Program-made: the position numbers and the translations under genes
Part shown: positions 6,216 to 63,796 of the stretch, one piece after another
Position numbering within the stretch: the stretch's first letter is position 1
Layout of the letters: every line of letters starts with the position of its first letter
IMG/VR virus record: IMGVR_UViG_3300021171_000004
Span: 31,524-95,523 of that record
DNA from: a virus
Length of the DNA: 64,000 nt
Direction: 5' to 3' (one strand)
Notes under the pieces: generated by a model
What the model was told of the DNA's origin: nothing
What the model saw: the letters and a program-made list of their open reading frames with translations, nothing else
Database searches by the model: none

Positions 6216-8338
6216 TGGCTAGGATAGAACCAGATGCCGCAAACCCGCAAGGTCAAATTGACCCAAAAGATTTTATAAGTGCTTCCGAAGTTACTAAAGC
6301 GGGCGCGTTGCAGTTGGTTTGTCAGGATGCGCAATCCAGTGAGGCTTGGTTAACTCAAAACTACTGGAATATCAGATGGCGTGAGGCGGATGCGCTGTAT
6401 CAATCCCCGCCTTCGGTTCTCATGTGGGAAAATACCACAACGCCGCGTTCAAATGTAAATCGCTTCGTAGTTGCGGAAACTGTGAATGCAATTCACCCGC
6501 AAATCATGAACGGGCTATTTTATGAGCAGCCGCCATTCGTTCTGCGTCCGCGCCCGGTAATTACCCAGAACACTTCCCGGGCGATTTCCACGGTTATTGC
6601 ACAGGAATTGGATGAAATAAACTTTCGGCAGGAAACCGATTGGGGGCTTTTTTCCTCGCTCAACTTCGGCACAGGTATTTGGAAATGGGGTTTTAAAACC
6701 TACCCGAAGAAAACCACGAAGTACGTTCCGGTAGGAAACACCGTTTCGGTGGCGGCTCCCCTCCCGAATGCTCCGGCCACGATTCTCGAAACACCAGAAT
6801 CCCTGATGTACAAGCGGGTAGTCGGTGAAGAAGATGTTCACACACCGACTTTCGAAAACAAAGATATCCGTTATGTTTTGCCTGATCCGGCGCTCAAAGT
6901 CCCGGATATCCGCAAGGGCAAGTTTGTAATCGACAAGATGTATCTCACGTACAAGGACCTGATTAAACTAGCGTCCGAAGAGTACGTGGATGAGGATCCA
7001 AAAACCGGAAAGCAAACGCTAAAGAAGCGCTACGATCTTCCGAGCGAAGCAGAAATCAAAGAGTGGTTTACTAAACCCAAAGAATTGCCTGCGGCTGGGG
7101 CGGCGGGCGAGTCCATGTCTCCGCAGGGCACGGCTTATATCCATCACGCCAAGCCTGCCTTTCAACCTTCGACCGCGGATCCACTAGACGAACCTCTAGA
7201 AGTTTTGGAGCGCTGGGACAACGATAAAGTCATCACGGTTTTAAATCGTGTAAAAGTCATACGAAACGAGCCGAACGAATTTGGAGTTATCCCTTTCCTC
7301 TCGCTTAATTGGTGGAATATTCCTGATGCTTTTTGGGGTCTCGGTCTTGGGCGCGTCATTGGTGTCGAACAAAGAGTTCAAGCGGGCCTCATTAACGCCT
7401 GTCTTGATTTGGCATCCCTTATCGTTAATCCGATGTTCGTTCGGGCTCGTGGCGCGAATATTAACGAGCAGCAGATACGTCAACGAATTGGTGGAATCAT
7501 CGCAGTTGACGGGGACACGCAAAAAGCCCTAACTCTACTCGAACAGCCGAGTATTCCCGCCGAAGTCGTGCAGCAAATTGCTTTGTCGCAATCCCGAGTT
7601 GCAACCACGTCCGGAGCGGACCAGCAACTTACCATGGGTGTGAACACGGGTAAGGGCGGGGCCATGCGCACAGGCACGGGCGCTGCGGGTATGATTCAGG
7701 CAACCATGAATCGTATCGGCGGTTTTGCCGAAGCTTTCGTGCGTCAAGTCTACGAACCCTTTATCTACACAGTTCACAAACTGAACAAAGAGAAGATGCC
7801 GATTTCCTATATTCGGAAACTTCTCGGGGATAAGCTGGGCAAGGACTTCAAGTTCGACGCGAACGAGTTTTTGAACGCGCCCGCTGAGTTCGAAGTTCTG
7901 GCTGGTTCGCACTTAGCCGCAAAATCCCAGATGGCGCAGTCGCTGTTCATGATGCTCCAGCTTTTTGAGAATGCTCCTTTGATGCAGCAACTGAACGAAA
8001 TCAATCTCAAGAAGGTGAACATAGAAGAATTGTTCCACATGGTGCATGACATCTCCGGGTGGAAGAATTACTACGACATCATCCAAGACATGACGCCCGA
8101 AGAAATCCAAAGGCAGCAAGCGAAGTCGCAAGGTGCCCAGATGCAGGCCAAGTTGCAGGGTCAGATGGCCATGGAAGATAAGAAGTTCCAGAATAACCAG
8201 CAACTCATAGACCAGGAGAATGAAGGCCGAGCCGCACGGGATATTTTCCGCGTGATTGCGGAGAAGTCTGCGGAGCCAGAAGCACTACTTGGAGCAGAAG
8301 CCCCGTCCGCAGGAGTAGGAAGTTCTGAACAAGGATAA
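6215..8338 (+). CDS. Portal protein
   Basis: About 707 aa between terminase and scaffold/capsid; 'FGTGIWKWGF', 'FWGLGLG', Gln-rich C-terminal coil. Confidence 0.8.
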   Translation: MARIEPDAANPQGQIDPKDFISASEVTKAGALQLVCQDAQSSEAWLTQNYWNIRWREADALYQSPPSVLMWENTTTPRSNVNRFVVAETVNAIHPQIMNGLFYEQPPFVLRPRPVITQNTSRAISTVIAQELDEINFRQETDWGLFSSLNFGTGIWKWGFKTYPKKTTKYVPVGNTVSVAAPLPNAPATILETPESLMYKRVVGEEDVHTPTFENKDIRYVLPDPALKVPDIRKGKFVIDKMYLTYKDLIKLASEEYVDEDPKTGKQTLKKRYDLPSEAEIKEWFTKPKELPAAGAAGESMSPQGTAYIHHAKPAFQPSTADPLDEPLEVLERWDNDKVITVLNRVKVIRNEPNEFGVIPFLSLNWWNIPDAFWGLGLGRVIGVEQRVQAGLINACLDLASLIVNPMFVRARGANINEQQIRQRIGGIIAVDGDTQKALTLLEQPSIPAEVVQQIALSQSRVATTSGADQQLTMGVNTGKGGAMRTGTGAAGMIQATMNRIGGFAEAFVRQVYEPFIYTVHKLNKEKMPISYIRKLLGDKLGKDFKFDANEFLNAPAEFEVLAGSHLAAKSQMAQSLFMMLQLFENAPLMQQLNEINLKKVNIEELFHMVHDISGWKNYYDIIQDMTPEEIQRQQAKSQGAQMQAKLQGQMAMEDKKFQNNQQLIDQENEGRAARDIFRVIAEKSAEPEALLGAEAPSAGVGSSEQG

Positions 8339-8341
8339 TAC

Positions 8342-8728
8342 ATGAATGGCTCCGAGATCGAAACGGCCCCACGACGCCCCCAGATAAATCCACTCGCACT
8401 AGACGAGCCCCAAGAACTATCCGATACGGAAAAAATGGATTTGATAGCCGGAGACGATTCTCCGTACGCCAAAGCCATGAAAAAACTCATGCGGTGGGAG
8501 ATAGCCAAATCCCGCGAAGCCGCAGAGGATTGCGACCCGTCCGAAAAGGAAAAGCAGGTAGCCCTGCTCACGGTTTTGTATGCCCAGAAAAAGTTCTTCA
8601 ATAGTTTAATGGGCGCAATTCTGTTCGAAAAAACAAGCCATCTATCCGATGTCCGTCAAAAAATCGCACAGGAAGAATTGCAAGACCGAGAAAAGCTTGA
8701 ATCAATAATTCTCGCAAATCAAACTTAG
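8342..8728 (+). CDS. Hypothetical helical protein downstream of portal
   Basis: ORF coupled to the portal gene with an RBS. Confidence 0.65.
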   Translation: MNGSEIETAPRRPQINPLALDEPQELSDTEKMDLIAGDDSPYAKAMKKLMRWEIAKSREAAEDCDPSEKEKQVALLTVLYAQKKFFNSLMGAILFEKTSHLSDVRQKIAQEELQDREKLESIILANQT

Positions 8729-8937
8729 ACGGTTATTCGGCACACCATACAAGTCCAGACAGGCGGTTCCCAACCGTAGTTAGACCCGGAATCCCAATAG
8801 GCTTTATGAACATGCTTGTTGGTGCCGCAGTTTGAGCATTGCGGCGGGGTTACTTTTTTGCAATTGCAGTCGCGATACGAACAAACACTCTCTTCGGCTT
8901 TAGGTTTTTTGTGTCCCATACTCTTTTTCCTGTCCAT
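8725..8937 (-). CDS. Small Cys-rich zinc-ribbon protein
   Basis: CxxC pairs; overlaps the 3' end of the DUF4338-like gene. Confidence 0.45.
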   Translation of the reverse strand: MDRKKSMGHKKPKAEESVCSYRDCNCKKVTPPQCSNCGTNKHVHKAYWDSGSNYGWEPPVWTCMVCRITV

Positions 8938-9422
8938 GAGTCTGTTCCTTTTCCGGCCACCCGTTTACAGGTTTGGCCTTTCGTGATTCCAACTTCTGTC
9001 CAACCATCTCGTTTGTAGATTTCTCCAGTTCGAGGGAGTTCAATTAGTGTCTCGAACCCAACCACTTCGTCTCCATATTTCTTCTGCCAGTCCGTGGCAA
9101 CCGTTTGACGGAATAGTTCAAGGACCTTCACAGTGAAGTTTCGAATCGGATATTTTCCGTGCGGTTCGACATGATAGAAAATGTTGTTCACAATGTGAAC
9201 TAGCATCTGTCTTTTTGTTTCAGGTGTTATCCCGAAAAATTTGTCTCGGCCAACCAAATGCAACGTGGCCGAACCGCCAACAATTCCACCATAGTATTGC
9301 CCGCCCCACAGCACGGTATAGCAGATGTTTCGGCCTACGAACCCTTTCGGGTTCGAATAGTGAACCGCCATGTCTGCCAGCAAACGCGGGTCAGTTCTTT
9401 TGATTCTTTCTAACCTAAGCAT
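8850..9422 (-). CDS. DUF4338/DruA-like (Mom/GNAT-like) protein
   Basis: Motifs 'HYS..GFVGRNICY', 'RDKFFG', 'IVNN', 'DWQKKYG...FETLIE..RTGEIYKRDGWTEVGITKG'; true start probably ATG 9422 or GTG 9425. Confidence 0.6.
   Translation of the reverse strand: MLRLERIKRTDPRLLADMAVHYSNPKGFVGRNICYTVLWGGQYYGGIVGGSATLHLVGRDKFFGITPETKRQMLVHIVNNIFYHVEPHGKYPIRNFTVKVLELFRQTVATDWQKKYGDEVVGFETLIELPRTGEIYKRDGWTEVGITKGQTCKRVAGKGTDSWTGKRVWDTKNLKPKRVFVRIATAIAKK
9186..9200. repeat. Dispersed palindrome GTTCAC-N3-GTGAAC (perfect copy)
   Basis: gttcacaatgtgaac. Confidence 0.85.
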
Positions 9423-9467: not shown

Positions 9468-10361
9468 ATGACAGAAGTAGCAGAAGCACCAAAGAAGTGG
9501 GTAAGGTCTTACCAACCGAAGGACGAAAACGGATACCCTATCGGTCCGCCCCAGAAATTTGAAGCGGACACTCAACAGGAATTGATTGACAAGCTCGCTG
9601 CCGCGCACGAAAACGCGAGCGCTGCTTTGTACAAAACCCGCCAGCAAGTGAAGTTAGGCGCGATGCTCGAACCCGACCCGGACGAGCCTCTGCAAACGTT
9701 CGAATCGAAAACTCTCACCGCCGAGGAACGGCTTAAAATTACTAAGCAACTGGCCGACCCAGCCACTGTGGTTGAAGGCTACAAAAGTTTATCAGAAGCC
9801 GTTTATGGAGCACCGCCTGAGAAGGTTCAGGAATCTCTCCGTGAACGTGAAATCAGTAAGCGCGTAGATTCCATCCGCGCTGCAATCGCCTTATTCGTCA
9901 AGGAAAATCCCGCGTACGTAGAGTGCGAAGGAAACTCCGACAAGATGAAAAAATACATGGAGAAAAATAATCTCCGATACACGGCGAAAAACCTCAAGAT
10001 TGCTTTCGAAGATTTGTCCAGTGATGGTTTACTCACTGTGCGAACTCCGCAAGCGGCAGTACCAGTAACACCCGTTGTTACTCCTGTAACGACGAACGCA
10101 CCCGCTGTGCCTGAGGCGATCCCTCCCGCACCGACAACTCCGGCCCCGGCGATCCCGGTTGAGCCTACGGAAGTGCGCCCCAAGAACTCGTCCAGCGGAT
10201 TAGGACGCGAAAATTCCAGCGCAGTACCTGGAATCACACCACCTAAGACCCCGGGGATTTCTATCAGGGATATTAACAAAATGAGCGCCGCAGAATACCA
10301 AGACAAGCTGAAGGATCCTGAGTTCCGGAAAGCTGTCGAAGCTCTGTACGCCAAGAAATAA
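9468..10361 (+). CDS. Capsid scaffolding protein
   Basis: Directly upstream of the MCP; helical N-terminus, Pro-rich linker, short C-terminal helix 'INKMSAAEYQDKL'. Confidence 0.7.
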   Translation: MTEVAEAPKKWVRSYQPKDENGYPIGPPQKFEADTQQELIDKLAAAHENASAALYKTRQQVKLGAMLEPDPDEPLQTFESKTLTAEERLKITKQLADPATVVEGYKSLSEAVYGAPPEKVQESLREREISKRVDSIRAAIALFVKENPAYVECEGNSDKMKKYMEKNNLRYTAKNLKIAFEDLSSDGLLTVRTPQAAVPVTPVVTPVTTNAPAVPEAIPPAPTTPAPAIPVEPTEVRPKNSSSGLGRENSSAVPGITPPKTPGISIRDINKMSAAEYQDKLKDPEFRKAVEALYAKK

Positions 10362-15179: not shown

Positions 15180-15209
15180 AGTGTATCACAGAAAGGTAGC
15201 CGAATGCAA
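15180..15209 (-). promoter_or_regulatory. sigma70-like promoter for the AAA+ ATPase
   Basis: TTGCAT-N18-TACACT with extended -10 TG. Confidence 0.55.
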
Positions 15210-16529
15210 TTCGCCTACGAACGTGCCCGAGTGGGCACCCGAGCGGCCCAGTGGATTAACCCCAAAAAAGACGAACTACTCATCCCTGACCGGAAAACCG
15301 CCTACGCACTAATCGAGAAGTTCGACGTACAGTTACAGGCGAAACTGCCGCGGCACAAACGGGCTGAGATTTTGATTGCAAAAAGCATGATATATGAGGC
15401 TTTGGGCGATCAAAAGATGATGCAGGCCGCGGAAGAGGCTTTCAAGGTTACGAAAACCTCCACAACTGCCCACATGATGGCGGTCGCCCATCACCACTTT
15501 GGGCGGCTCCAAGAAGCCTGTAATTTTTACACCTTAGCGTACCGTTTCCCGCACGAAGAGGGTTTTAACGTCGATCTGGCTTATACACAGGCCCTGCTAT
15601 TCCAAGGCAGGTGGTCTGAGGCCCACAGGATGACGCTAGGACTGAAGAAACGGATGGTGTATGCCGCTTACCTGCCAGAATGGGACAGTCGGCCCTGTAT
15701 GGCGCTCTCAATCGTTTCTGAGGGTGGTTTTGGGGACATAATTCAGTGCGGGCGGTGGATACCCATAATTCGAGAGATGGTCGCGAACGTAACAGTCTAC
15801 CTGCCGCCATATTTCTTCGAAACTGGGTTTGTGGACCTGATGCGGAAGCAAAGTTGGTGCCCAGAGGTCAAACTCCTAACCGACTGTCCGCAGAATGTTC
15901 CAGCGGTCGGCTTTTTCGACCTGCCAGCTATTTTTGATGTCCAGCCAGATAACATTCCGCCTTCCCTCAGTTTCAAGGCGGATCCCATACGGGTAGCGAA
16001 ATACCGAGATATTCGTAATTCGCGATTCCCGAATGCCAACCTCCCGACCGTGGGCTTCTGTTTCGCGGCCCGCCAGCAAGAGACTCCTTTAGTGCCGGAC
16101 GGGACGTACCGAGCCCTCACAGAGCAACAGGCGGAAAGAATTCTGGTTGCAGGATTCGAAAAAGTTCGCTTTGTGAACTTGCAAAAAGATTTGAAAATCG
16201 ACCAGTTCGCAGCACCGCTTATTGCCCGGCCAGAAATCAATTCTTGGGAAGATACGTGCGCGATTATCGAGAATCTAGATTTTGTGATTTCAGTGGACAC
16301 CGCGGTTTTTCATCTCGCAGCCGCCATGGGGAAACCCGTGATTTTGATTTTATCGGGGGCCTCGGATTGGAAATTTGGTCTAAACGATGAGACGTGCCGC
16401 TGGTATTCAAACGTACGAATCATTCGCAACAATGGATTTGGTTTTGAAAACGCCGTCGAAAAGGTTATTCAGCTAGTCGAAAATGCCCAATTCCACAACC
16501 CAACTGTCGAAAATCACGCAATTCGCTAA
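15204..16529 (+). CDS. TPR-repeat plus GT9 (heptosyltransferase-like) glycosyltransferase
   Basis: Helical TPR-like N-terminus; 'EGGFGDIIQ..R'; 'LDFVISVDTAVFHLAAAMGKP'; 'DWKF..WYSNVRIIR'. Confidence 0.8.
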   Translation: MQFAYERARVGTRAAQWINPKKDELLIPDRKTAYALIEKFDVQLQAKLPRHKRAEILIAKSMIYEALGDQKMMQAAEEAFKVTKTSTTAHMMAVAHHHFGRLQEACNFYTLAYRFPHEEGFNVDLAYTQALLFQGRWSEAHRMTLGLKKRMVYAAYLPEWDSRPCMALSIVSEGGFGDIIQCGRWIPIIREMVANVTVYLPPYFFETGFVDLMRKQSWCPEVKLLTDCPQNVPAVGFFDLPAIFDVQPDNIPPSLSFKADPIRVAKYRDIRNSRFPNANLPTVGFCFAARQQETPLVPDGTYRALTEQQAERILVAGFEKVRFVNLQKDLKIDQFAAPLIARPEINSWEDTCAIIENLDFVISVDTAVFHLAAAMGKPVILILSGASDWKFGLNDETCRWYSNVRIIRNNGFGFENAVEKVIQLVENAQFHNPTVENHAIR

Positions 16530-17553
16530 GACCTTCCCAGATCTTGCTCCCATGGTTCAGACCACTGCGGGCGGTTCTTCGCTCGAACCCGCTCTCACGG
16601 TTTCGTCCGATACCATGATTGAAATGATTTCCCAGAACTTCAATTGGAAGTGGAATCGTTTTATCGTCCCGACCTTTTACACGAACGGTTTCCAACAGGA
16701 TTACGCCCTGCCCGGTGTCGTGAATTTAGGCTGGCTCGAACACGGGGTTTTAATTGATATCAACAATACGGCGATTCCGAAACCAGTTTGGCCTTTAGAA
16801 GTTGTTCGCGATCTGGAATTTACTTCCACCCAGTACGGTCGGCCCGGACAAATTTGCTGGCTTCCGAATGACCAACTTTATTATGCCACATGGGGCGCTC
16901 AAAACACGGGCAATTCCACAATCGGATTGAATCCCGGTCCCAATATGGTAATCGGAACTCTTCTGGGTGTGTACGCTGCGCCGATTAATCCTATTCTTCA
17001 AGTCCAGGATGCTTTCGGAAATCTCTGGGTTGTCACGACCTTTGGGACCACAGGCGCAACCAACCCCTTCGCCACGAACCAGAATCCTGTTTTTCCCTCC
17101 TCGAATAATCCCACCACTGTCGCAACTACTGTCACGGACGGAACCGTAGTTTGGACTGCGGTAAATCCCAAAGGCATGGGCGTGCGCGTAAATCCAATTC
17201 CCCCGCAAACCGGAATCGTTTATCAATTTTATTTGGCTGCGCAGTACAGAGCTTTTGCGTTTTCGAACGGGCCGTTCACACAACTCAGCCAAACCATCGA
17301 ACCCATACCCGACGATTTCGCGAAATATTTCCGAGACGGATTCGTATCCATGATGTACGCGCACTCGCAGGATCCGCGGGTGCGTGCGAAATTTCAGGAT
17401 ATGTACAACAATTGGTTGAAGTCGCTAAATGATTTTCGAAGGCAAGCGGATCGCGAGCGCGAAAATGCCGGATTTTACCCCAGCAGCCCGATTATACAGG
17501 GCCCAACTTTCGTAAACGCCGGGCCCGCCTACCCATTTATGCAAGGTTTCTAA
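16483..17553 (+). CDS. Head-tail adaptor-like virion protein
   Basis: 'FNWKWNR', 'QQDYALP', 'PIPDDF'; paralogous to the 20929 protein. Confidence 0.6.
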   Translation: MPNSTTQLSKITQFAKTFPDLAPMVQTTAGGSSLEPALTVSSDTMIEMISQNFNWKWNRFIVPTFYTNGFQQDYALPGVVNLGWLEHGVLIDINNTAIPKPVWPLEVVRDLEFTSTQYGRPGQICWLPNDQLYYATWGAQNTGNSTIGLNPGPNMVIGTLLGVYAAPINPILQVQDAFGNLWVVTTFGTTGATNPFATNQNPVFPSSNNPTTVATTVTDGTVVWTAVNPKGMGVRVNPIPPQTGIVYQFYLAAQYRAFAFSNGPFTQLSQTIEPIPDDFAKYFRDGFVSMMYAHSQDPRVRAKFQDMYNNWLKSLNDFRRQADRERENAGFYPSSPIIQGPTFVNAGPAYPFMQGF

Positions 17554-17798
17554 TGTTGCATTTCACGATAACAAGCGCACAGGTCACGTACGTCCAGCCG
17601 CCGCCCGTGAATTCACAAAGTGAACAGATTCCGAACACTACTTTTTTAAATGTTCAGACGGTGAATTCCAGCGAATTGGATAATCCCGGCACGAACCAAC
17701 CCGCGGTAGCCAGCACTTTTCCGAGGGTGGCCGATCCCTGGATCGTGAATCCGAACTTAGTCCAAGTGTTCCCAGTGAACAATCCGCCAGCGCCATGA
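17553..17798 (+). CDS. Small Pro/Asn/Thr-rich protein (paralog family)
   Basis: Coupled ORF with 'TITSAQ' N-terminal motif. Confidence 0.6.
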   Translation: MLHFTITSAQVTYVQPPPVNSQSEQIPNTTFLNVQTVNSSELDNPGTNQPAVASTFPRVADPWIVNPNLVQVFPVNNPPAP

Positions 17799-18449: not shown

Positions 18450-18860
18450 CTAGTCAAAATACTCTATTTTTTCAATGAAGCCGAGAATTTCTAGCGCTTC
18501 CACAGCGCACCCATAGTGAGTAACAAAATGACGATTCTCTCTATGTTGGACAGTAAACTCGTCCGGGTTTGCGATTCCCTTCGGAAGCCCGATCCCAGTA
18601 AAAGCGCCGCCAGCATTTTGGGCTTGTAACCCAATCGCGCTACGAATCTGTTGGGTTGTGATTTCTTTTACATTATAGTTGTTGGAATCGGGACCCCGTA
18701 GGGCTGTGAACACCTCCCACACAGCTTTCGCATATCTGGTCGTGGCGTGCCGTTCGTCGGGGTTCTCAATGTCATTGTTCATAAACGCGATAACATCTGA
18801 AATCAGTTTCCTAGCTTTTTTCTTCGCTTTAGAAGCATATTTTTCGTTGGGCGTTTTCAT
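18450..18860 (-). CDS. Hypothetical protein
   Basis: RBS AGGAGGGAG and own promoter. Confidence 0.7.
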   Translation of the reverse strand: MKTPNEKYASKAKKKARKLISDVIAFMNNDIENPDERHATTRYAKAVWEVFTALRGPDSNNYNVKEITTQQIRSAIGLQAQNAGGAFTGIGLPKGIANPDEFTVQHRENRHFVTHYGCAVEALEILGFIEKIEYFD

Positions 18861-18877: not shown

Positions 18878-18906
18878 ATGTTCACATATTGAACAAACTA
18901 TGTCAA
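18878..18906 (-). promoter_or_regulatory. Promoter overlapped by the palindromic motif
   Basis: TTGACA-N17-GAACAT; motif copy at 18880-18894. Confidence 0.55.
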
Positions 18907-26048: not shown

Positions 26049-26164
26049 CGCCCGACGCGCACGGTTTCAGGTTGTTTTTCTGGAACAGGAGCCTCAATCT
26101 TCCTCGGCATCGGGGTTCTTATCGGCTCCGAAATTCCAGTTCTCTTCGTCGTCCCGGTATTCAT
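26045..26164 (-). CDS. Small Pro-rich hypothetical protein (39 aa, below the ORF-track cutoff)
   Basis: RBS GGAGG then ATG; MNTGTTKRTGISEPIRTPMPRKIEAPVPEKQPETVRVGR. Confidence 0.45.
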   Translation of the reverse strand: MNTGTTKRTGISEPIRTPMPRKIEAPVPEKQPETVRVGR

Positions 26165-26960: not shown

Positions 26961-26989
26961 ATGTTCACATACGGAACGGAGTTTGTCAA
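26961..26989 (-). promoter_or_regulatory. Promoter overlapped by the palindromic motif
   Basis: TTGACA-N17-GAACAT; degenerate motif copy at 26963-26977. Confidence 0.55.
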
Positions 26990-42053: not shown

Positions 42054-42449
42054 ATGAGTAACCCCGCACCGTACAAATTTTGTGAAGCCCACATGAAACC
42101 AAGCATCGGCCCCAACCGATGCCATGAATGTTTTGGTGCCCAACCAAACCCCACGAACGAACCTGTTCACAAAGTGAACACTACACCTCCAAGCACAAAA
42201 CTCCAAGAAAACGGAAGTATTGTGCAACAAAATGTAGTGCCCGAACCCGCCCTCACCGATCCCACCGCTCAAAAAGTAGTCGAAGCCGCCCAGAATTATG
42301 CCCGAGCAATCGAAACCGTAAAAATAATCTCCGAACAATTAACAGAAGCCAAGGAACTCGTGGCTGCGCTCGAAAAACAACTCAAAGGAAACCAGGATTT
42401 GGCAGATGCCGCGCAAAACGAACTACGGGAAGCGACGGTGAAAAAATGA
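42054..42449 (+). CDS. Hypothetical protein (Cys motif plus coiled coil)
   Basis: ORF coupled to the next gene. Confidence 0.55.
   Translation: MSNPAPYKFCEAHMKPSIGPNRCHECFGAQPNPTNEPVHKVNTTPPSTKLQENGSIVQQNVVPEPALTDPTAQKVVEAAQNYARAIETVKIISEQLTEAKELVAALEKQLKGNQDLADAAQNELREATVKK
42165..42179. repeat. Dispersed palindrome (perfect copy)
   Basis: gttcacaaagtgaac. Confidence 0.85.
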
Positions 42450-43898: not shown

Positions 43899-44309
43899 AA
43901 TCTGTCTATCTAATCGGTTCGCTCCGGAATGAAGCCGTCCCAGAATTCGGGCAAGAATTACGAAAAATAGGATTGGACGTTTTCGATGATTGGTATGGGG
44001 CCGGAAAAATTGCGGACGATTCATGGCAGGCATACGAAAATTTACGTGGCCGGAATTTCGCGGATGCTTTGGCAGGATACGCCGCCCGGCATGTTTTCCA
44101 TTTTGATAAAACTCATTTGGACCGCTGTGACGCAGCTATTCTACTCCTCCCTGCCGGAAAGAGCGGCCACCTCGAACTAGGCTATATGATTGGTTCTGGA
44201 AAACCAGGCTTTATTTGGGAATTATATAGCTAACTCCCGTATGAAAACAAAGGACTTATAACCCCTGTGTTTTCAGTACGTACCAGTACTAAATAGTTTG
44301 AGAAAGTAC

Positions 44310-44338
44310 TTGACTCCCTTGAGGTAGTTATGTACACT
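44310..44338 (+). promoter_or_regulatory. IS-internal promoter overlapping a partial IR copy
   Basis: TTGACT-N17-TACACT; TTGACTCCCTTGA equals the inner part of the right end read on the minus strand. Confidence 0.6.
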
Positions 44339-44359
44339 GTATCTAGTGGAGGCAATCAC

Positions 44360-44566
44360 ATGGGACTCGGAAACAACAGAGATTACAAAACAAGAGCCGC
44401 CAGAATCACTCGCAATCTCATGGCTCATCAGATTCTAATGGAGCGCAATATGCTGGCTGGCGAGTCGAGAGAAGAAGCATCCAAATCAGCAATGCGAGAA
44501 TTGAAAGGAATGACCAAACTTCAATCCGAGCGATTGATAGAACGGCATACAGGGAGCGGACTGTGA
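44360..44566 (+). CDS. IS passenger hypothetical protein
   Basis: RBS GGAGG before ATG 44360. Confidence 0.6.
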   Translation: MGLGNNRDYKTRAARITRNLMAHQILMERNMLAGESREEASKSAMRELKGMTKLQSERLIERHTGSGL

Positions 44567-44940
44567 TTTGCAAATGTGGGCATCATCGGGCCGACCACAT
44601 GGGCATGGGGCCATCTCGCGGAAAGCCGATTATGTCCGCTTGCTGCATTTCAGAGTGCGGCTGCATTGAGTGGCGTCCAAAAAGAAACAGAGACGATGCC
44701 CACGCATTCTGCCGTGAGTTGTTAAAACGAACCATGACAGAAGTACGCCAACACTTCACCGCCGAAGAGATAAAGGGAGCGTGGGTCTACGACGCTGGCG
44801 GAAGAAAAGAATATGAGTTTCACGGTGCGAACAAAGAATACTTTCATGGTCTGGACGCTGACTGTGCGTGGAGCGCAAAAGCAACGGGGTGGTCGAGGAT
44901 GCTGCACACTAAATTAGAAGGAAGAAAGGCGGAACTATGA
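44563..44940 (+). CDS. IS passenger protein with CxCGH..C..CxC motif
   Basis: Coupled ORF. Confidence 0.6.
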   Translation: MICKCGHHRADHMGMGPSRGKPIMSACCISECGCIEWRPKRNRDDAHAFCRELLKRTMTEVRQHFTAEEIKGAWVYDAGGRKEYEFHGANKEYFHGLDADCAWSAKATGWSRMLHTKLEGRKAEL

Positions 44941-45077
44941 TTCGTCGATTCATTAACTGGCTTATTGGCGAGTGCTATTGCGAACAACCTGAGCCACTAC
45001 AAATCGCAGCGGAAGCGGGAATTTGCAACCGTTGTAAGCGTCGTCTTTGGGGCGAAGATTTCAATCATTGGCTATGA
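44937..45077 (+). CDS. IS passenger small Cys-containing protein (46 aa)
   Basis: ATGA coupling; CYC...CNRC. Confidence 0.45.
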   Translation: MIRRFINWLIGECYCEQPEPLQIAAEAGICNRCKRRLWGEDFNHWL

Positions 45078-45092
45078 GAAAGGGAGCAAACC

Positions 45093-45209
45093 ATGAACAC
45101 GGAAGCAATCAGCTTGATATTAGTAATCGTAGGTTTTGTGTTCTTTCCCGCTATTTTGATGGTTTATAGTTCCTATTTAGACTTAAAAGTGATAGCAGGA
45201 AAACAATGA
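45093..45209 (+). CDS. IS passenger small membrane peptide (38 aa)
   Basis: RBS GGGAG; single TM; stop overlaps the transposase start. Confidence 0.45.
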   Translation: MNTEAISLILVIVGFVFFPAILMVYSSYLDLKVIAGKQ

Positions 45210-46123
45210 GCCGCTCCACTATCAGCACGTTCAAGCTATTTGAACTGTTCCCCGATGAACCTACCGCTCGCAAGTATCTGGAGGGGCGTCTGTGGCCTAA
45301 CGGTGTTACCTGTCCTCAATGCAAGAGCAAAGAGCGCATCACGGTTCGCAAGGATGGCTTCTATCGTTGCAATGCTGACAAGCTGGACTTCACTGTGAGA
45401 ACAGGAACTATTTTCGAGCGGTCGCACGTTCCTCTTCACAAGTGGCTGTATGCGATGTACCTGCTAGTGACCGCTCGCAAGGGAATCTCTTCCCTGCAAC
45501 TCGGAAAGGAAATCGGTATCACGCAAAAGTCCGCATGGTTTGTTCTCCACAGGCTCCGAGAGGCTTGCGGCACCAAACTGGAAATGCTCAAGGGCACAGT
45601 CGAAGTGGACGAAACGTTCTTCGGGGGCGAAGAGAACAATCGCCACATGTACGACCGCATCCACAAGCCAAGAGAACGCTCGGAGAAAGTAGCCGTCATT
45701 GGCATCCGCGAACGTGGCGGAAATACTTATGCGGCTGTGACTGACAGCATCGGTGGACTCGCCCTCCGCACCGCTGTTCAAAAGAACGTACTGCCCGGCT
45801 CCCGCGTTATCTCGGATGAGGCTCCCGGCTACAAACGTCTAGGTTCCGAAGGCTACAAACACGAAGCCGTGAAGCACGTTGCTGGTGAATACGTCCGTGG
45901 GACGGCTCACACGAACGGAATTGAGTCGGTTTGGGCTGTGATGAAACGTGGGATGCACGGCGTCTATCATCACGCCGACCGCAAGCACGTGGGACGCTAC
46001 GTTAACGAGTTTACCTTTCGCCTGAATCAAGGGAACGTCAGCAGGCACACCACGGAGCGTCTGGATAGTTTTGTGGACGCCGTAGCAGGCAAGAGACTGA
46101 CGTTTGAGGCTCTGACCGCATGA
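45206..46123 (+). CDS. IS1595-family DDE transposase
   Basis: Zinc ribbon 'WPNGVTCPQC', 'GTIFERSHVPLHKW', 'VEVDETF', 'SDEAPGY', 'HTNGIESVW', 'YVNEFTFR.N'. Confidence 0.92.
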   Translation: MSRSTISTFKLFELFPDEPTARKYLEGRLWPNGVTCPQCKSKERITVRKDGFYRCNADKLDFTVRTGTIFERSHVPLHKWLYAMYLLVTARKGISSLQLGKEIGITQKSAWFVLHRLREACGTKLEMLKGTVEVDETFFGGEENNRHMYDRIHKPRERSEKVAVIGIRERGGNTYAAVTDSIGGLALRTAVQKNVLPGSRVISDEAPGYKRLGSEGYKHEAVKHVAGEYVRGTAHTNGIESVWAVMKRGMHGVYHHADRKHVGRYVNEFTFRLNQGNVSRHTTERLDSFVDAVAGKRLTFEALTA

Positions 46124-46263
46124 AAATCCTAGATGCCGTCACGGACGTTGTGCTCGCTTACAAGCCCAAACCAAAGACTAAAGCCGCAAAGCGTAGAGCA
46201 CGAAGGAATAAGCGTGCGGAGAAAACTAAGGCCAAGTCAAAATCAAGGGAGTCAACTATATAA
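46120..46263 (+). CDS. Small basic IS-terminal ORF (47 aa)
   Basis: MKILDAVTDVVLAYKPKPK...; its stop lies inside the right IR. Confidence 0.5.
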   Translation: MKILDAVTDVVLAYKPKPKTKAAKRRARRNKRAEKTKAKSKSRESTI

Positions 46264-46390
46264 TTCCCCTTTATTTTGATGGACAAAGAACCGGAACGCT
46301 ACGACGTGATGTACAATTTCGCGACCGGGGTATATTTTTCTCGAAAAGAACTACTTGACGAATTAGCCCTAGATGTGGTACCATTCTGAT

Positions 46391-46834
46391 ATGAAACGCT
46401 ACGTAGTTGGATTCATGTTTTCGGGAGATGGTTTGGATGTCTGTTTAATTCTGAAAAATCGTCCTGAGTGGCAGGCTGGAAAATTCAACGGTGTGGGCGG
46501 CAAGATAGAACCAACCGACCAAAGTTCCGCTGCCGCGATGTGCCGAGAATTTTTCGAGGAAACAGGAGTAAACACGGACGAGTGCGAGTGGGATAATTTC
46601 CTACTCATGCGATGCGATAAAGAATCAAAAATTCCGGGCAATACAAATCCTTTCGAAATATATTTCTTCCGAGCATTCTCAACCAAAATCTGGAATGTCG
46701 GAACCACCACAGACGAAATGATTTCCATAGTTTTGGCCGACGACCTTCCTGGAAACGTGGTTCCAAATCTCAAATGGCTCGTTCCCATGGCTCGAAATCG
46801 AAACATGCTGTACGGAGAAGTGACCGTAAAGTGA
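46391..46834 (+). CDS. NUDIX hydrolase
   Basis: Nudix box 'GGKIEPTDQSSAAAMCREFFEETGV'; leaderless promoter TTGACG-N18-TACCAT upstream. Confidence 0.85.
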   Translation: MKRYVVGFMFSGDGLDVCLILKNRPEWQAGKFNGVGGKIEPTDQSSAAAMCREFFEETGVNTDECEWDNFLLMRCDKESKIPGNTNPFEIYFFRAFSTKIWNVGTTTDEMISIVLADDLPGNVVPNLKWLVPMARNRNMLYGEVTVK

Positions 46835-47250
46835 AGGTTTACCTCGCAGCCGCGTTTTCTCGCCAATCTGAAATTAAGGTTGTGGCAGAAAAATTGCGAC
46901 AAGCGGGAGTTGAAATCACTTCAAGGTGGATCGACGCAGAGACGATATACAAAAAACCTACGCGGCTTCGCACCGAAGACGGCTTTCACGACATCCAAGA
47001 CCTTCGAGCCGCCGACATTCTTGTTCGCTTCACGGATACGCCTAGCGGCCCAACCGTTCCGTCCCGATTAGTCTCATGCGCCCGTATGTTTGAATTTGGA
47101 ATGGCATGGGAACGTGGGATGCCAATCTTCGTGGTTGGCGGAAAACAAAACGTTTTTGATTATCTCCCGAACATTGTTCACTTTGTGAACGAGGAAAGTT
47201 TGTTGAGTTATTTTAGAAATTTAGAACCGTCATTGGACAGAATTCTATGA
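46831..47250 (+). CDS. Nucleoside 2-deoxyribosyltransferase-like protein
   Basis: 'KVYLAAAFS', 'DIQDLRAADILV', 'EFGMAW..GMPIFVVG'. Confidence 0.7.
   Translation: MKVYLAAAFSRQSEIKVVAEKLRQAGVEITSRWIDAETIYKKPTRLRTEDGFHDIQDLRAADILVRFTDTPSGPTVPSRLVSCARMFEFGMAWERGMPIFVVGGKQNVFDYLPNIVHFVNEESLLSYFRNLEPSLDRIL
47176..47190. repeat. Dispersed palindrome (perfect copy)
   Basis: gttcactttgtgaac. Confidence 0.85.
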
Positions 47251-47678
47251 GCGAAAAATGGGACCGCCGCTATCTCGAACTAGCCAAACACGTCGCTCAG
47301 TGGAGTAAGGATCCGAGCACGAAAACCGGGGCTGTGATTGTTTCGCCGGATAATTTTGTGGTTGGCCTCGGTTACAACGGATTTCCGCACGGCGTGGAAG
47401 ATACCAGTTACCGCCTCAACGAACGTGAACTCAAATACAAACTCATCGTGCATTGCGAGCGTAACGCGATTATCTCGGCCCGGCAGAATCTTTCAGGAAG
47501 CACCCTTTACACTTATCCGTTCATGTCCTGTGCTCCGTGCGCGGGCATGGTAATTCAAGCCGGAATCAAACGCTGTGTTTCGTATGTGAACAATAATCCC
47601 CGCTGGCAGGCGGATTTCGAACTCACCAAAACCATGTTTCAAGAAGCTGGCGTCACACTAAATCTCTACGAGGAATAA
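47247..47678 (+). CDS. dCMP deaminase
   Basis: 'SKDPSTKTGAVIV', 'GYNGFP', 'HCERNAI', 'SCAPCA'. Confidence 0.9.
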   Translation: MSEKWDRRYLELAKHVAQWSKDPSTKTGAVIVSPDNFVVGLGYNGFPHGVEDTSYRLNERELKYKLIVHCERNAIISARQNLSGSTLYTYPFMSCAPCAGMVIQAGIKRCVSYVNNNPRWQADFELTKTMFQEAGVTLNLYEE

Positions 47679-47679
47679 A

Positions 47680-48147
47680 ATGGCTGATTTGAAGGATTCT
47701 GGGACTCGCCAGGAATTCAAAACTGGGGCTGTGCGTGATACCGCAGGAAATAAACCCCTGCTCGAACTCATCCCAGAATGGGCCTCGCTCGCGTACGGAT
47801 GGGTGCTCGAAGCGGGCATGAGAAAATATTCCGCCCGCAATTGGGAAAAAGGGATGCCGATCTCCCGGTATATTTCTTCTGCAAAGCGGCATCTTGCGGC
47901 CTACTCTCTCGGTTTTCGGGATGAACCCCATCTTTGGCAGGCTTTTTGGAATATCGGCGGGGCGATACACACGCAAATTTTGGTGTATTTAGGGGTTTAT
48001 CCGGCAGAATTTTATGATTTACCGAACCACATAGGAAAAGAGCAGGCACCGATTTTATCTGAATTCGAGCGCGAACGAATCGATGCGATGATTAAGAGTT
48101 CGAAGGATTCGAATCCGCAACGACCTTCTGGCGGTTGCGTGAGTTAG
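47680..48147 (+). CDS. DUF5664 dATP/dGTP diphosphohydrolase-like protein
   Basis: 'DSGTRQEFKTGAVRD..K..ELIP', 'G..KYSARNWEKG', 'RHL', 'EPHL'. Confidence 0.75.
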   Translation: MADLKDSGTRQEFKTGAVRDTAGNKPLLELIPEWASLAYGWVLEAGMRKYSARNWEKGMPISRYISSAKRHLAAYSLGFRDEPHLWQAFWNIGGAIHTQILVYLGVYPAEFYDLPNHIGKEQAPILSEFERERIDAMIKSSKDSNPQRPSGGCVS

Positions 48148-50862: not shown

Positions 50863-50877
50863 GTTCACTATGTGAAC
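50863..50877. repeat. Dispersed palindrome (perfect copy)
   Basis: gttcactatgtgaac, adjacent to the RBS of 50592-50849. Confidence 0.85.
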
Positions 50878-51342: not shown

Positions 51343-52326
51343 TTGAGCGAAACCGAAATTACATATTCACAAAGTGAACAGGTCAACGAGCTAGTCGCGG
51401 CCCTCGCAAAAGCCAAGCTGAAGTATGGGGAAGTTGTTAAAAGTAAAGAAAATAAATACACAGGGTCCCTATATGCCGATTTGCAGGATTTGATGAATGC
51501 CGCCGAACGGCCCCTAGCTGAGGAAGGTTTGGTAATCGTTCATTTTCCGCTCGAACGCATCGAGCAAAAGAAGGCCGGAGCCCTAACTAAGCTAATTCAT
51601 GCGTCCGGACAGTTCTTCGGGAATCAGTTCCTTATGCCCGCTACTGGCAAAGCCTCTGGCGGCGCAGAAAAACTGGATGCCCAAACCGTGACAGGCGGCG
51701 TAACTTACGCTAAACGCTGCAATTACGGTGCTTTAGCCGGATTGGTAGGTGAAGCAGACGATGACGGAAACGCCCTGGCGGACAAATCCGACTCTCGACC
51801 CCCAGTTCCGCCGACGAAAGCACCAAAAGCACCCCCCGTAAACCAAGCGAAAGCTAATACAGGTGGGGATCGCCCGAATTCACATAGTGAACAATCGGCG
51901 GTTCCGAAGGCGGTTATTCCTCCGGCAGAGCCCGTAAAGACCCCCACGCCGCAACCAGCAGCCACGCAGACGAACGATCCCAGTTTTAACGATGTTGTGC
52001 CTGTCCAAGCGACTTTTCCCCTAGAATCGCCTGCCAGCACGTCTCAGCCGGATACAAGCGAAAAACCCACAAAATCTCAACTTGATACGTACACAGCCAA
52101 GGTTCGAGACGAAATTCGGCCTGCTCTGGAACGGGCAGGGTTAAAAGCATCGAAAAATGCCACGGTGGGAGCCAAACTCAAAAATTACCTAGTGTCCGCT
52201 TTTGGGACGAACGGGGCCAAGGACCTTACGGACTTGACAATTTCGCAGTGGGATGCTTTTATGAATACATACAACACAACCGATTCTGCTTCGTTCGCGG
52301 CTTTGGTTGAGGGAGGGAATAAGTGA
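51343..52326 (+). CDS. ERF-family ssDNA annealing protein
   Basis: 'NELVAALAKA', 'YADL', 'LIHASGQF', 'TYAKR..ALAGL..DDDGN'. Confidence 0.85.
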   Translation: MSETEITYSQSEQVNELVAALAKAKLKYGEVVKSKENKYTGSLYADLQDLMNAAERPLAEEGLVIVHFPLERIEQKKAGALTKLIHASGQFFGNQFLMPATGKASGGAEKLDAQTVTGGVTYAKRCNYGALAGLVGEADDDGNALADKSDSRPPVPPTKAPKAPPVNQAKANTGGDRPNSHSEQSAVPKAVIPPAEPVKTPTPQPAATQTNDPSFNDVVPVQATFPLESPASTSQPDTSEKPTKSQLDTYTAKVRDEIRPALERAGLKASKNATVGAKLKNYLVSAFGTNGAKDLTDLTISQWDAFMNTYNTTDSASFAALVEGGNK

Positions 52327-52704: not shown

Positions 52705-53069
52705 ATTCCGTCGCGCTCATCGGGCGTTTAGGCCGCGATCCGGAAACCCGCTATACTACGGGCGGAAAAGCCGTCACGAACTTTTCCATAGCCGTGGATT
52801 ACGGTTTTGGTGACAAAAAAACCACAAGCTGGATCCCAGTGGTCGCGTGGGAAAAGACCGCCGAGCTTGCGCAACAATATTTAGGCAAGGGTTCGCAAGT
52901 CGCGGTCACAGGAAGGTTACAGGAACGTTCGTGGCAGGATAAAGAAGGAAACAAACGGACAGTTCTGGAAGTGATCGCGATTGGCTTGGATTTTTTGACG
53001 AAGGTGGAAAAGAAAAACAGTTCACAAAGTGAACAGCCGGAAATCCCAGACGAAGATATTCCTTTTTAG
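52701..53069 (+). CDS. ssb: Single-stranded DNA-binding protein
   Basis: 'NSVALIGRLGRDPETRY', 'KGSQVAVTGRLQ.RSW', C-terminal 'DIPF'. Confidence 0.95.
   Translation: MNSVALIGRLGRDPETRYTTGGKAVTNFSIAVDYGFGDKKTTSWIPVVAWEKTAELAQQYLGKGSQVAVTGRLQERSWQDKEGNKRTVLEVIAIGLDFLTKVEKKNSSQSEQPEIPDEDIPF
53020..53034. repeat. Dispersed palindrome (perfect copy)
   Basis: gttcacaaagtgaac in the ssb C-terminal linker. Confidence 0.85.
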
Positions 53070-59845: not shown

Positions 59846-60526
59846 ATGAACGAAGCCATCCAAGTTCTAGCTTCACAAAGTGAACAGCTAGTCGCGCATC
59901 CAAGCAGTATTTTCGAACAAATCGACTCGCTCATCCAAAATCTTTTATCCGCAGAATCCCGATTGGACCACGGATACGCGAAACTCGGTCTTCTGCTTAC
60001 CGAAGTGTCCGAACAGGAACTTTGGCGCGAAGCTGGATTCGAATGTTTCGATGATTATTTGGTCGAAACCGCCGACAAACACCATCGCGGACGCACAATG
60101 CTTTGGCATTATTTTACGGCTGTTCGAGAAATGAAACCCTATCTCACCGAAGGCCAGATGAACGAAATGGGGATTTCGAAACTCGGGGTGCTCAAAAAAG
60201 CCACGAAGGAATTGGGCTTTCCGCCGAACCAAGAAGTAATCGATACGGCGCTCGACCCGAAAAAAACTGTTTCGGACGTGCGCAAAGCTGTCGCGCAAAA
60301 TCATAAATTAACAGAGCCAGAGCAGGAAGGCAGTTGGTTCGATCTCGGCGGATTTTTCGTGACGAACGAGGAAAAATTAGTAATCAAGGAAGGTTTCGAG
60401 GCTAGTTGGAGAACGGATCCCGTAATCCAAAAGTCCGTGAAGGAAACGGTTCGCACGAAAGAAGGTTTGCTCCGGCTGTGCATGGACTATCTCAGTTCAC
60501 ATAGTGAACAAGGTGAAGCGGCGTGA
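59846..60526 (+). CDS. Helical DNA-binding protein, DUF3102/plasmid-partition-like
   Basis: 'LGLLLTEV..ELWREAGFECFDDYL..GRTMLWHYF..MGISKL'; recognised by eye only. Confidence 0.45.
   Translation: MNEAIQVLASQSEQLVAHPSSIFEQIDSLIQNLLSAESRLDHGYAKLGLLLTEVSEQELWREAGFECFDDYLVETADKHHRGRTMLWHYFTAVREMKPYLTEGQMNEMGISKLGVLKKATKELGFPPNQEVIDTALDPKKTVSDVRKAVAQNHKLTEPEQEGSWFDLGGFFVTNEEKLVIKEGFEASWRTDPVIQKSVKETVRTKEGLLRLCMDYLSSHSEQGEAA
60495..60509. repeat. Dispersed palindrome (perfect copy)
   Basis: gttcacatagtgaac. Confidence 0.85.
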
Positions 60527-62363: not shown

Positions 62364-62371
62364 GGTAAGGT

Positions 62372-62875
62372 ATGAGTAGTCAAGAAAAATTCATAATTGC
62401 TTATTTGTTCGTGATTCTTATTCTCGTTGGGTTCGTGGCAGGCTACCAGGCTGGTCACCCAGTGAACAAAAAGTGTGATTGCGGAAACATCTGCTCCACG
62501 ACGAGTTCACATTGTGAACTAAAAGAGTGCCCGAAGCACAAAACCGCAGGCGAGCCGCTTTCGAACAAACAACTCCAAGCGTGGTTTGACGGCTTGAACG
62601 AAGAATATTTTATGAGCCGCCTGCCCAGAGCCGCCGTGACGTGGGGCGATCTCACGATTTTGAAAGATATGGGCGTCACGATGCACCCCGAAGGAAATTT
62701 CATAATTATTATTGACCGGGACACAAACCGAACCAAGTCAACCACGGAAGAAACTATTTCGCACGAAACCTGTCACGTAGCCACATGGGATTTGGAAATG
62801 GATGCGCACGGACCAAAATTCCAAGCCTGTATGGTGAATCTGGCAAACAAAGGTGCGTTCGAGGGGATATGGTAA
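62372..62875 (+). CDS. Membrane-anchored SprT-like metalloprotease
   Basis: N-terminal TM; 'LNEEYF..LP', HETCH, 'HGPKFQ'; promoter TTGACA-N17-TAGGGT at 62338-62366. Confidence 0.7.
   Translation: MSSQEKFIIAYLFVILILVGFVAGYQAGHPVNKKCDCGNICSTTSSHCELKECPKHKTAGEPLSNKQLQAWFDGLNEEYFMSRLPRAAVTWGDLTILKDMGVTMHPEGNFIIIIDRDTNRTKSTTEETISHETCHVATWDLEMDAHGPKFQACMVNLANKGAFEGIW
62505..62519. repeat. Dispersed palindrome (perfect copy)
   Basis: gttcacattgtgaac. Confidence 0.85.
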
Positions 62876-62935
62876 ATCCAGACAGTCCATGGAACTGCTA
62901 CTCTTGGGTCCCAAAAGGCATGGAAAACATACAAG

Positions 62936-63157
62936 ATGAAAACGAGCCGCAAGATTCTGTTCGAGTGTTGCCGACTTTTGATGATGGAAATCCAGGAGCA
63001 GAAACACTCCCGGGAAGCGCTGATTCGGGCGCTAATCAGAGAGGAGGCACAGCCAGTAAAAATACCGACTGACGATGAAGTGAATGAGCGTATAAATCAG
63101 CTTCAGGAGGTGGCTAAAAAGAACTTGACAAACCAAAAAGAGGGTAGTAAACTGTAG
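62936..63157 (+). CDS. Hypothetical protein
   Basis: Short helical ORF. Confidence 0.4.
   Translation: MKTSRKILFECCRLLMMEIQEQKHSREALIRALIREEAQPVKIPTDDEVNERINQLQEVAKKNLTNQKEGSKL
63125..63153 (+). promoter_or_regulatory. sigma70-like promoter
   Basis: TTGACA-N17-TAAACT. Confidence 0.55.
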
Positions 63158-63223
63158 TAGAAATAGCATCATCACGGGGGCTGTTTCGCCGTGGCGGTGG
63201 GGCAGCCCCACTTCAAAGGAAAA

Positions 63224-63796
63224 ATGACCGAAAAAACCAAATCCATTTTTGCTTTCTTCGTCGGCCTGCTTTTGCTGATTTTGATTGCTGCGCTCGGGTC
63301 TCCGGCTAGTTCACATAGTGAACCCGCACTTAGATTTATGCCCGTGCCTCCGAAACTGGAATATAGCATTTTCCGCACGGGCGGGCTCGAAGTCGCAAAA
63401 GTTTTTGGGCGCACGCAAGGCTGCTACGAGGCGGATGCAGAATTAATCGAAGAAGTGAATTCGGCGGCGACGCGAACGGGACTCGATCCAAAAATAGTGG
63501 CCGCAACCGTAGCGGTGGAGTCTGGGTGTAACCAACTGGCGATTTCCAGCCGAGGGGCTGTAGGGTTAATGCAAATCCGGCCTGCCATTTGGTGCGAAAA
63601 GTACGATTGTACGAAAACATACAATTTTCTGAATCGACACGATAACGTACAAGTCGGTGTTTTCATCCTGTCCGATCTAGTGAACCAGTATGGAATTCAG
63701 GAAGGTGTGCGCAGATACCAAGGAATTGGCCGAGGCTGTGAAACCTGCGATGATTTGTATGCAGAGAAAATTTTGAAGTTAGCGGGGAGGAAGTAA
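63224..63796 (+). CDS. Lytic transglycosylase (SLT) with N-terminal signal/TM
   Basis: 'VAVESG', 'AISSRGAVGLMQI', 'NVQVG', 'RRYQG'. Confidence 0.85.
   Translation: MTEKTKSIFAFFVGLLLLILIAALGSPASSHSEPALRFMPVPPKLEYSIFRTGGLEVAKVFGRTQGCYEADAELIEEVNSAATRTGLDPKIVAATVAVESGCNQLAISSRGAVGLMQIRPAIWCEKYDCTKTYNFLNRHDNVQVGVFILSDLVNQYGIQEGVRRYQGIGRGCETCDDLYAEKILKLAGRK
63309..63323. repeat. Dispersed palindrome (perfect copy)
   Basis: gttcacatagtgaac. Confidence 0.85.

Follow-up and report, generated by a model that had tools for sequence, protein, structure and literature searches.

A 15-bp palindrome, GTTCAC-WWW-GTGAAC (W is A or T), recurs along a single 95,523-bp virus contig of 49% G+C (IMG/VR record IMGVR_UViG_3300021171_000004), bases 31524-95523 of which make up the 64,000-nucleotide stretch analysed here and called the window. 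The palindrome is strongly selected, is a hallmark of the phage lineage to which the contig belongs, and is maintained as DNA, not as the peptide that it happens to encode. The chances are about even that its copies form a dispersed operator network for a putative phage-encoded dimeric DNA-binding protein. Coordinates are those of the window unless labelled as genome coordinates, which refer to the whole contig.

The exact palindrome is present eight times in the window and was absent from all of 100 dinucleotide-preserving shuffles. With the spacer free and up to one mismatch allowed, the window holds 21 sites (8 perfect and 13 one-mismatch) where 0.16 are expected. The whole 95.5-kb genome has 14 perfect, 22 one-mismatch and 18 two-mismatch copies; chance would give about 0, about 0.2 and, by our calculation, about 3-4, respectively. 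An earlier note on this DNA had listed the 8 perfect copies, 11 one-mismatch copies and a number of two-mismatch copies. All of them exist, the perfect ones exactly where they had been placed, and two further one-mismatch copies, at 33856 and 43264, had been overlooked. The geometry is a 6-3-6 dyad, and the A/T-only spacer described for the perfect copies of the window extends to 14 of 14 genome-wide; one-mismatch copies with other spacers include those at 40589 (ATG) and 62453 (CCA). Half-sites taken singly are not enriched, and enrichment is confined to the full dyad. The palindrome is thus real, dyad-symmetric and dependent on an A/T spacer, and its symmetry agrees with the proposal that it is shaped for a dimeric DNA-binding protein.

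Genes were called for this analysis from codon-usage log-odds and ribosome-binding-site scores. When synonymous codons were permuted within each called gene, so that protein sequences were kept, in-gene copies averaged 0.58 perfect (maximum 3) and 2.3 one-mismatch (maximum 5), as against the 10 and 14 observed. All eight S[QH]SE peptides in the proteome are encoded exactly as TCA-CA[AT]-AGT-GAA, and four of five VHxVN peptides are encoded by the exact palindrome. The third reading frame holds TGA and is occupied only where the palindrome overlaps a stop. Selection targets the DNA and not the encoded peptide, as had been proposed; both peptide readings named in that proposal were found, but not the VHIVN reported in a DUF4338-like gene. 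An S-Q-S-E peptide motif was considered as the main cause and rejected because copies also occur between genes, in promoters and in other frames, and because of the outcome of the codon test.

The sites of the window with up to one mismatch, and one two-mismatch site that lies in a promoter, are the following (G001, G002 and L008 are metagenomic relatives).

9186-9200, perfect, spacer AAT: intergenic, between genes 8342-8728 and 9468-10361.
42165-42179, perfect, spacer AAA: ORF (open reading frame) 42054-42449, in the V-H-K-V-N frame.
47176-47190, perfect, spacer TTT: near the 3' end of nucleoside deoxyribosyltransferase-like ORF 46774-47250, whose Pfam match to that family is weak.
50863-50877, perfect: upstream of a leftward 85-aa gene, 14 nt from its GTG start (50849); this gene comes before the family A DNA polymerase.
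53020-53034, perfect: C-terminal linker of SSB (S-Q-S-E-Q), 35 nt before the stop; core kept at the orthologous place in G001.
60495-60509, perfect: 3' end of the 226-aa gene (S-H-S-E-Q), whose stop follows after 17 nt, and the start of the next gene after 14 nt; kept or one mismatch off in several metagenomic relatives.
62505-62519, perfect: SprT-like ORF 62372-62875, in the S-H-x-E frame, with a one-mismatch partner 52 bp upstream (62453); equivalent site in G001.
63309-63323, perfect: SLT-domain ORF 63191-63796, 118 nt from its start, in the S-H-x-E frame.
7772-7786, one mismatch: portal gene (V-H-K-L-N); peptide conserved, DNA site kept in only some relatives.
16164-16178, one mismatch: within the GT9-like gene 15204-16529.
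17611-17625, one mismatch: 58 nt inside the 81-aa gene 17553-17798; two-mismatch version in L008.
18880-18894, minus strand, one mismatch: leftward promoter of the 136-aa gene 18450-18860(-).
26963-26977, minus strand, two mismatches: leftward promoter of the 286-aa gene 26094-26954(-).
32745-32759, one mismatch: gene 32559-34334; identical in G002.
33856-33870, one mismatch: gene 32559-34334.
38956-38970, one mismatch: gene 38437-39153.
40589-40603, one mismatch: gene 39719-40909; identical in G002.
43264-43278, one mismatch: 43 nt inside the ThyX gene; variant kept in G002.
51365-51379, one mismatch: 22 nt inside the ERF recombinase gene; equivalent site in G001.
51878-51892, one mismatch: middle of the ERF gene (S-H-S-E).
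59871-59885, one mismatch: 25 nt inside the 226-aa gene (S-Q-S-E).
62453-62467, one mismatch: SprT-like ORF.

The site in the portal gene may be held partly by the protein. The site at 9186 forms the tip of a hairpin of -14.2 kcal/mol (window 9171-9215, z -3.9) followed by a T-run, probably an intrinsic terminator downstream of gene 8342-8728; on the minus strand, a promoter-like TTCACA-17-TATCAT has its -35-like TTCACA inside the palindrome. To the left of the window, an ORF at genome 4161-4442 carries a perfect site at its 3' end and has a sub-threshold Pfam match to the Xp10 P7 transcription regulator (E = 0.002).

The sites concentrate at gene boundaries. Among the 36 genome-wide with up to one mismatch, 12 are not wholly within a called gene, and 15 have a gene start or stop no more than 30 nt away (4.8 expected, p = 2e-5); 12 are near gene starts, with 3.2 expected. 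The 21 sites of the window divide into 3 intergenic, 8 within 60 nt of a gene end and 10 internal. The description of the palindrome as embedded in coding sequences is therefore only partly right: many copies are in genes, but a third are not and boundaries are preferred. This bias may largely reflect tolerance for a 15-bp word, which is greatest in intergenic gaps, protein termini and linkers. Rightward of 41.9 kb the window has 0.54 sites/kb, and its structural module has 0.21 sites/kb, in line with the reported rise in the replication arm, although the left arm, outside the window, is as dense as the right one, so that both non-structural arms are highest and the structural module lowest. 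The IS1595 element, said to hold no perfect copy, has none with up to one mismatch either, and its single two-mismatch match (45388) is at chance level.

The concentration of sites within about 30 nt of start codons, several of them abutting ATG codons that lack a Shine-Dalgarno sequence, is what would be seen if the palindrome acted as RNA, with a 6-bp stem and a 3-nt loop serving as a processing, stability or translational-operator signal, and a hairpin was predicted in all cases folded. The predicted stability is low (about -6 kcal/mol, z about -1 to -2) and the flanks add no complementarity. The symmetry is perfect at the DNA level, and neither spacer nor flanks are oriented consistently with the coding strand; a role in RNA gives no reason for an A/T-only loop on both strands. 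Four copies precede the transcription start, within promoter spacers, and compensatory stem changes that keep pairing while altering sequence have so far not been seen in relatives. We regard an RNA element as very unlikely. Nor do the sites resemble intrinsic terminators or REP-like (repetitive extragenic palindromic) hairpins, which are stable and G+C-rich: theirs are weak and, with the exception of 9186, have no U-run.

The four copies just mentioned share one architecture on the minus strand: cTTGACA, a gap of 6 nt (5 nt in one case), and the palindrome. Two are in the window, at 18880 and 26963, and two outside it, at genome 12562 and 6093. In the three with a 6-nt gap, AT follows the palindrome, which places the distal half-site as TGT-GAACAT exactly 17 nt after a perfect -35 box (TTGACA at 18906-18901 for the 18880 promoter and at 26989-26984 for the 26963 promoter). 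By our calculation about 0.05 such coincidences of TTGACA-N5/6 with the palindrome would be expected. The four sites thus overlap, in fixed register, the -10 of predicted leftward promoters, one half-site apparently supplying the -10 region. These promoters precede three leftward accessory genes and an operon that ends in a 185-aa tyrosine recombinase. Two other sites stand near promoters: the perfect copy at genome 25238 is just downstream of TTGACT-17-TACGAT, and the ERF site at 51365 is about 40 nt downstream of TTGCAT-17-TACTAT. Generic scans for sigma-70 promoters and for terminators gave results at chance level.

The leftward accessory genes within the rightward structural module (window 18450-18860(-), 26094-26954(-) and 4905-5660(-), and genome 5034-6053(-)) each have their own strong TTGACA promoter and have no homologues in G001 or G002. 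The tyrosine recombinase (genome 11375-11932(-); Phage_integrase, E = 1e-31), a minimal one and the last gene of the operon with the palindrome in its promoter, adjoins a phage tRNA-Asn gene at genome 10993-11068.

Relatives of the phage differ in how far they share the palindrome. Tunturiibacter phage Tunturi_3, the sole relative in the annotated phage collection (portal identity 37%), is distant and lacks it. Closer relatives, with portal identities of 65-80%, are uncultured phages in IMG/VR. One of these, the 94-kb contig G001, has 21 sites with up to one mismatch and none of the reversed-pattern control; exact TTCAC-N3-GTGAA cores number 23 in the phage under study and 19 in G001. GTTCA-N5-TGAAC is enriched in relatives G002, L003 and L005, and metagenomic fragments around one conserved gene hold about 33 core sites in 69 kb. 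The positions of 30 sites could be located in G001, and at 7 of these G001 has a site too, with 1.4 expected. Fixed in position are the intergenic site at genome 7948, the 5' end of ERF, the SSB C-terminal linker, the 5' end of the 226-aa gene and the SprT-like gene. Similar totals with 7 of 30 sites placed alike argue that copy number is kept across the lineage while individual positions turn over. The comparison with related phages that the earlier note had called for thus shows the core enriched in them and the same positions only partly kept. G001 also has six copies of a spacing variant, TTCAC-N2-GTGAA, with spacers of T-N-A pattern (L014-L018).

The same comparison bears on whether the sites are scars of recombination or mobility, as boundary sequences for gene shuffling or targets of HNH/Endo VII nucleases. 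Sites flank accessory genes missing from relatives, one block of homology with G001 begins exactly at the genome 7948 site, and several HNH/Endo VII genes are encoded. Homology breakpoints relative to G001 and G002 fall within 30 nt of sites in 4.8% of cases, compared with 7.4% for ordinary gene boundaries, and a breakpoint role was rejected as not enriched beyond the gene-boundary effect. The fixed promoter register is left unexplained by such scars, and the authors who described dispersed repeats in Cluster O mycobacteriophages found no link between repeats and indels (PMC4351075). This origin is highly improbable.

A portal-protein search of 185,579 species genomes found no prophage relative. 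The IS1595 transposase (window 45206-46123; DDE_Tnp_IS1595 and zinc ribbon), which sits in a nucleotide-metabolism module, has its nearest relatives (62-84%) in Acidobacteriota/Terriglobia metagenome-assembled genomes and in one Dormiibacterota metagenome-assembled genome. Judged by this transposase alone, the host phylum is probably soil Acidobacteriota. The scan of candidate host genomes that had been suggested was made on five Acidobacteriota genomes (30 Mb) from the likely host phylum, where the palindrome is not a genome-wide motif: they contain three perfect copies, none with an A/T-only spacer. No copy was found in 80 bacterial loci examined. This near-absence suggests that the site belongs to the phage lineage and is not a genome-wide motif of the host.

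Binding by a host transcription factor or nucleoid protein that the phage exploits is improbable on the same grounds, although a small host regulon would be compatible with so few copies. The half-sites in the boxes of CRP, FNR and Rex have the orientation opposite to that of the palindrome, and in the LexA box of Acidobacterium the repeat is direct (GTTC-N7-GTTC); both count against a host factor. In its favour, Pfam and PHROGs screens, which covered about 110 of the ORFs, revealed no classical phage repressor, and half-sites of the GTTCAC type are read by unrelated helix-turn-helix families, such as that of TP901-1 CI (AGTTCACG; PMC7250872).

The screens detected no XRE helix-turn-helix (HTH_3), ParB or ParA protein either. 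The only predicted sequence-specific helix-turn-helix protein among the ORFs screened is the following.

59846-60526, plus strand: 226-aa protein, family P0001, with a conserved helix-turn-helix.

We put this protein forward tentatively as the binder of the palindrome. It is 63-79% identical in more than 35 relatives and belongs to a family of 265 clusters that is common in uncultured phages and has no Pfam model; the protein has no Pfam or PHROG match, and 60 family members have no Pfam match. Its most conserved stretch is helix-turn-helix-like (M-G-I-S-K...L-K-x-A-T-K). The AlphaFold2 model has a predicted local distance difference test score (pLDDT) of 80 overall and above 90 over residues 20-150. 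The best solved matches found by VIA-align are the DNA-binding domains of ParB-parS, KorB, Spo0J, SopB, P1 ParB and VirB (Z 4.7-6.3, residues 40-154), and language-model neighbours weakly include ParB-HTH and partition proteins. Matches in BFVD are uncharacterised phage proteins, DUF3102 proteins among them. Only about 40 residues, with one long helix, precede the helix-turn-helix region, and a ParB/Srx CTPase domain was not detected in the protein. A site lies at each end of the gene, one 25 nt past the ATG and the other 17 nt short of the stop. The 13-bp core of the 5' site is exact or one mismatch off in 12 of 16 relatives, always with the spacer AAA, and its peptide is conserved within an otherwise variable N-terminus.

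Several results count against this candidate. Z reaches 6.3 at most, a range that the tool describes as a grey zone where proteins are helical, Foldseek gave no significant PDB match (best probability 0.66, for SopB-DNA), and sequence and profile searches of the PDB returned nothing or spurious TPR matches. In view of the grey-zone Z and the Foldseek result, the modelled ParB/KorB-like fold is treated as a weak lead. In G001 the ERF, SSB and SprT-like genes keep their sites as well, and the 226-aa protein is thus not alone in having a conserved site within its gene. Two relatives (L113 and L116) keep S-Q-S-E at the 5' end of the homologous gene with TCC instead of AGT as the Ser codon, and the palindrome is thereby lost; the peptide kept without its DNA site suggests that S-Q-S-E may have gained a role of its own there. 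Relatives L114 and L115 have an intermediate ACT (Thr) codon at that place. Phage G011, which has a distant member of the family, has no dense dyad network, just four copies of GAAGATCTTC; this neither supports nor excludes a link between protein and palindrome.

An operator network would work as follows. A phage-encoded, dimeric, sequence-specific protein would recognise the palindrome at its approximately 36 copies. At the four promoters, those of the three leftward accessory genes and the integrase operon, bound protein would block RNA polymerase. In other transcription units, sites at +1 to +40, like those between and inside genes, could serve as roadblocks or as loading or anchoring points. 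The outcome would be silencing that is global and depends on dose, as with stoperators or KorB operators, and the 226-aa protein might control its own expression from the two conserved sites that flank its coding sequence on the inside. Weighing against this reading, most sites lie away from recognisable promoters, an objection that the Cluster O authors also brought against such a role for their repeat, about three quarters of the mappable sites are not conserved in position in G001, and the TTGACA-N6 architecture was not found in that relative.

The distance of the majority of sites from promoters, and a copy number that is maintained while positions shift, would equally suit a density-dependent function, in which a phage protein binds for a purpose other than transcription: as a centromere or in condensation (ParB-parS, or N15 SopB with IR1-IR4), in self-marking, or in organising replication or packaging. 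The resemblance of the candidate binder to ParB-family DNA-binding domains and the TTCAC...GTGAA half-site, oriented as in canonical parS, point the same way. No ParA-type ATPase and no ParB/Srx CTPase domain was found among the ORFs screened, only about 40 residues precede the helix-turn-helix domain of the candidate, and the 3-bp spacer is unlike parS. Features of a plasmid-prophage were not seen, and no prophage copies turned up among the species genomes searched. Such a role also leaves the fixed promoter register of four sites unexplained, and we hold it to be rather unlikely. The earlier note had offered silencing, partition, compaction and protection as possible uses of a dispersed dimer site. 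The form of the site suits a dimeric binder, and the boundary bias and the four or five promoter-embedded sites favour transcription control over the other three.

Two other features of the contig were recorded. A 15-bp tandem repeat, CCTAGGCGGTGCGGA, is present in more than 10 copies at both contig ends (window about 63920-64000; genome 1-200). The shared repeat points to a circular or terminally redundant genome map, with the assembly broken inside the tandem array, and the repeats may be origin or packaging iterons. The nucleotide-metabolism cluster at window 42446-48147 encodes a PfkB-like kinase, ThyX, two weak nucleoside deoxyribosyltransferase-like ORFs, NUDIX, a dCMP deaminase and a MazZ-like dATP/dGTP diphosphohydrolase N-domain (PF18909); its content may point to a non-canonical DNA base.

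The earlier note did not recognise the palindrome as a described phage motif, but Cluster O mycobacteriophages such as Corndog carry a dispersed dyad much like it, the nearest analogue on record, so the phenomenon itself is not new. Their 17-bp repeat, TGTTCGG-NNN-CCGAACA, has 34 copies (14 intergenic, 10 near 5' gene ends and 10 internal), mostly with TTT or AAA spacers; it is not oriented with transcription, most copies are away from promoters, and a dimeric binder was predicted but no function assigned (PMC4351075). A recount in AY129335 also gave 34 copies. The two systems share inverted repeats with a 3-bp, mostly A/T spacer, an outer frame GTTC-N7-GAAC, 34-37 copies per genome, greater density in a non-structural arm and mixed intergenic, 5'-proximal and internal placement; the phage under study has more than 30 copies so placed (36 with up to one mismatch). 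They differ in the inner bases, CGG/CCG in Cluster O and CAC/GTG here, so that the TGTTCGG/CCGAACA sequence is absent, and the lineages are unrelated: an Endo VII homologue and two weak matches are all that is shared with Corndog, and the host phyla differ. Cluster O copies are invariant, whereas 22 of 36 carry one mismatch here, and promoter-embedded copies (four), an integrase and a proposed candidate binder belong to the phage under study only. An hhalign comparison of the candidate family with Corndog gp90, a ParB-like nuclease, found no similarity (probability 0.2).

Dispersed dyad repeats in phages were thus already known from Cluster O, where they are unexplained, and a mechanism exists just for the asymmetric stoperators of Cluster A. 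Added here are a second, unrelated lineage, of phages that probably infect soil Acidobacteriota; clear selection at the DNA level that overrides codon and even amino-acid choice; and promoter-embedded copies with a concrete candidate for the binder, through which the question can be approached by experiment. Confirmation of the binder would give a function to a large uncharacterised family of phage proteins and would supply a regulatory handle on phages of a phylum that has been little studied. A wider proposal, which we think unlikely, is that a CTPase-less ParB-like helix-turn-helix family (the 265 clusters) uses dozens of palindromes as a KorB-like silencing and organising network, for which selection is strong enough to rewrite termini and linkers of essential proteins such as SSB and ERF. 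If so, the GTTC-N7-GAAC frame shared with Cluster O would hint at a general way of controlling phage genomes that has yet to be described.

In Cluster A, one true operator lies at a promoter and many other stoperators silence by blocking elongation. These sites of the L5 gp71 repressor are treated in PMC4351075 and PMC6550527. The palindrome resembles them in its tens of copies genome-wide, many in short intergenic gaps or overlapping starts and stops. Stoperators are asymmetric sites of 13-14 bp oriented with transcription, whereas the palindrome is symmetric and unoriented. As to life style, the phage under study encodes an integrase, but no prophage copies turned up in the genomes searched.

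The half-site is nearly identical to that of TP901-1 CI, but there a single switch region contains the three operators, to which a hexameric CI of the XRE type binds, whereas the present sites spread over 95 kb; a Cro/CI-type switch is not indicated, with dispersed sites and no XRE/HTH_3 match in the screens. The half-site TTCAC...GTGAA also has the same orientation as in canonical parS, TGTTTCAC-GTGAAACA (PMC7053999). Because it resembles both, the half-site alone cannot identify the family of the binder.

Plasmid RK2 carries 12 KorB operator sites (OB, core TTTAGCGGCTAAA), which, like the present sites, are palindromes dispersed over a mobile genome. Differences are the lack of a detectable CTPase (ParB/Srx) domain and of sequence homology in the candidate, its weak fold match, the absence of a ParA or KorA partner among the ORFs screened, and the 3-bp spacer. 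The DNA-binding domains of KorB and ParB are the top fold matches of the candidate, and KorB, a helix-turn-helix protein of the ParB family, represses near and distant promoters alike (PMC11790492). By analogy, the KorB operators of RK2 would be the best mechanistic parallel for a dispersed ParB-type repressor acting through the palindrome.

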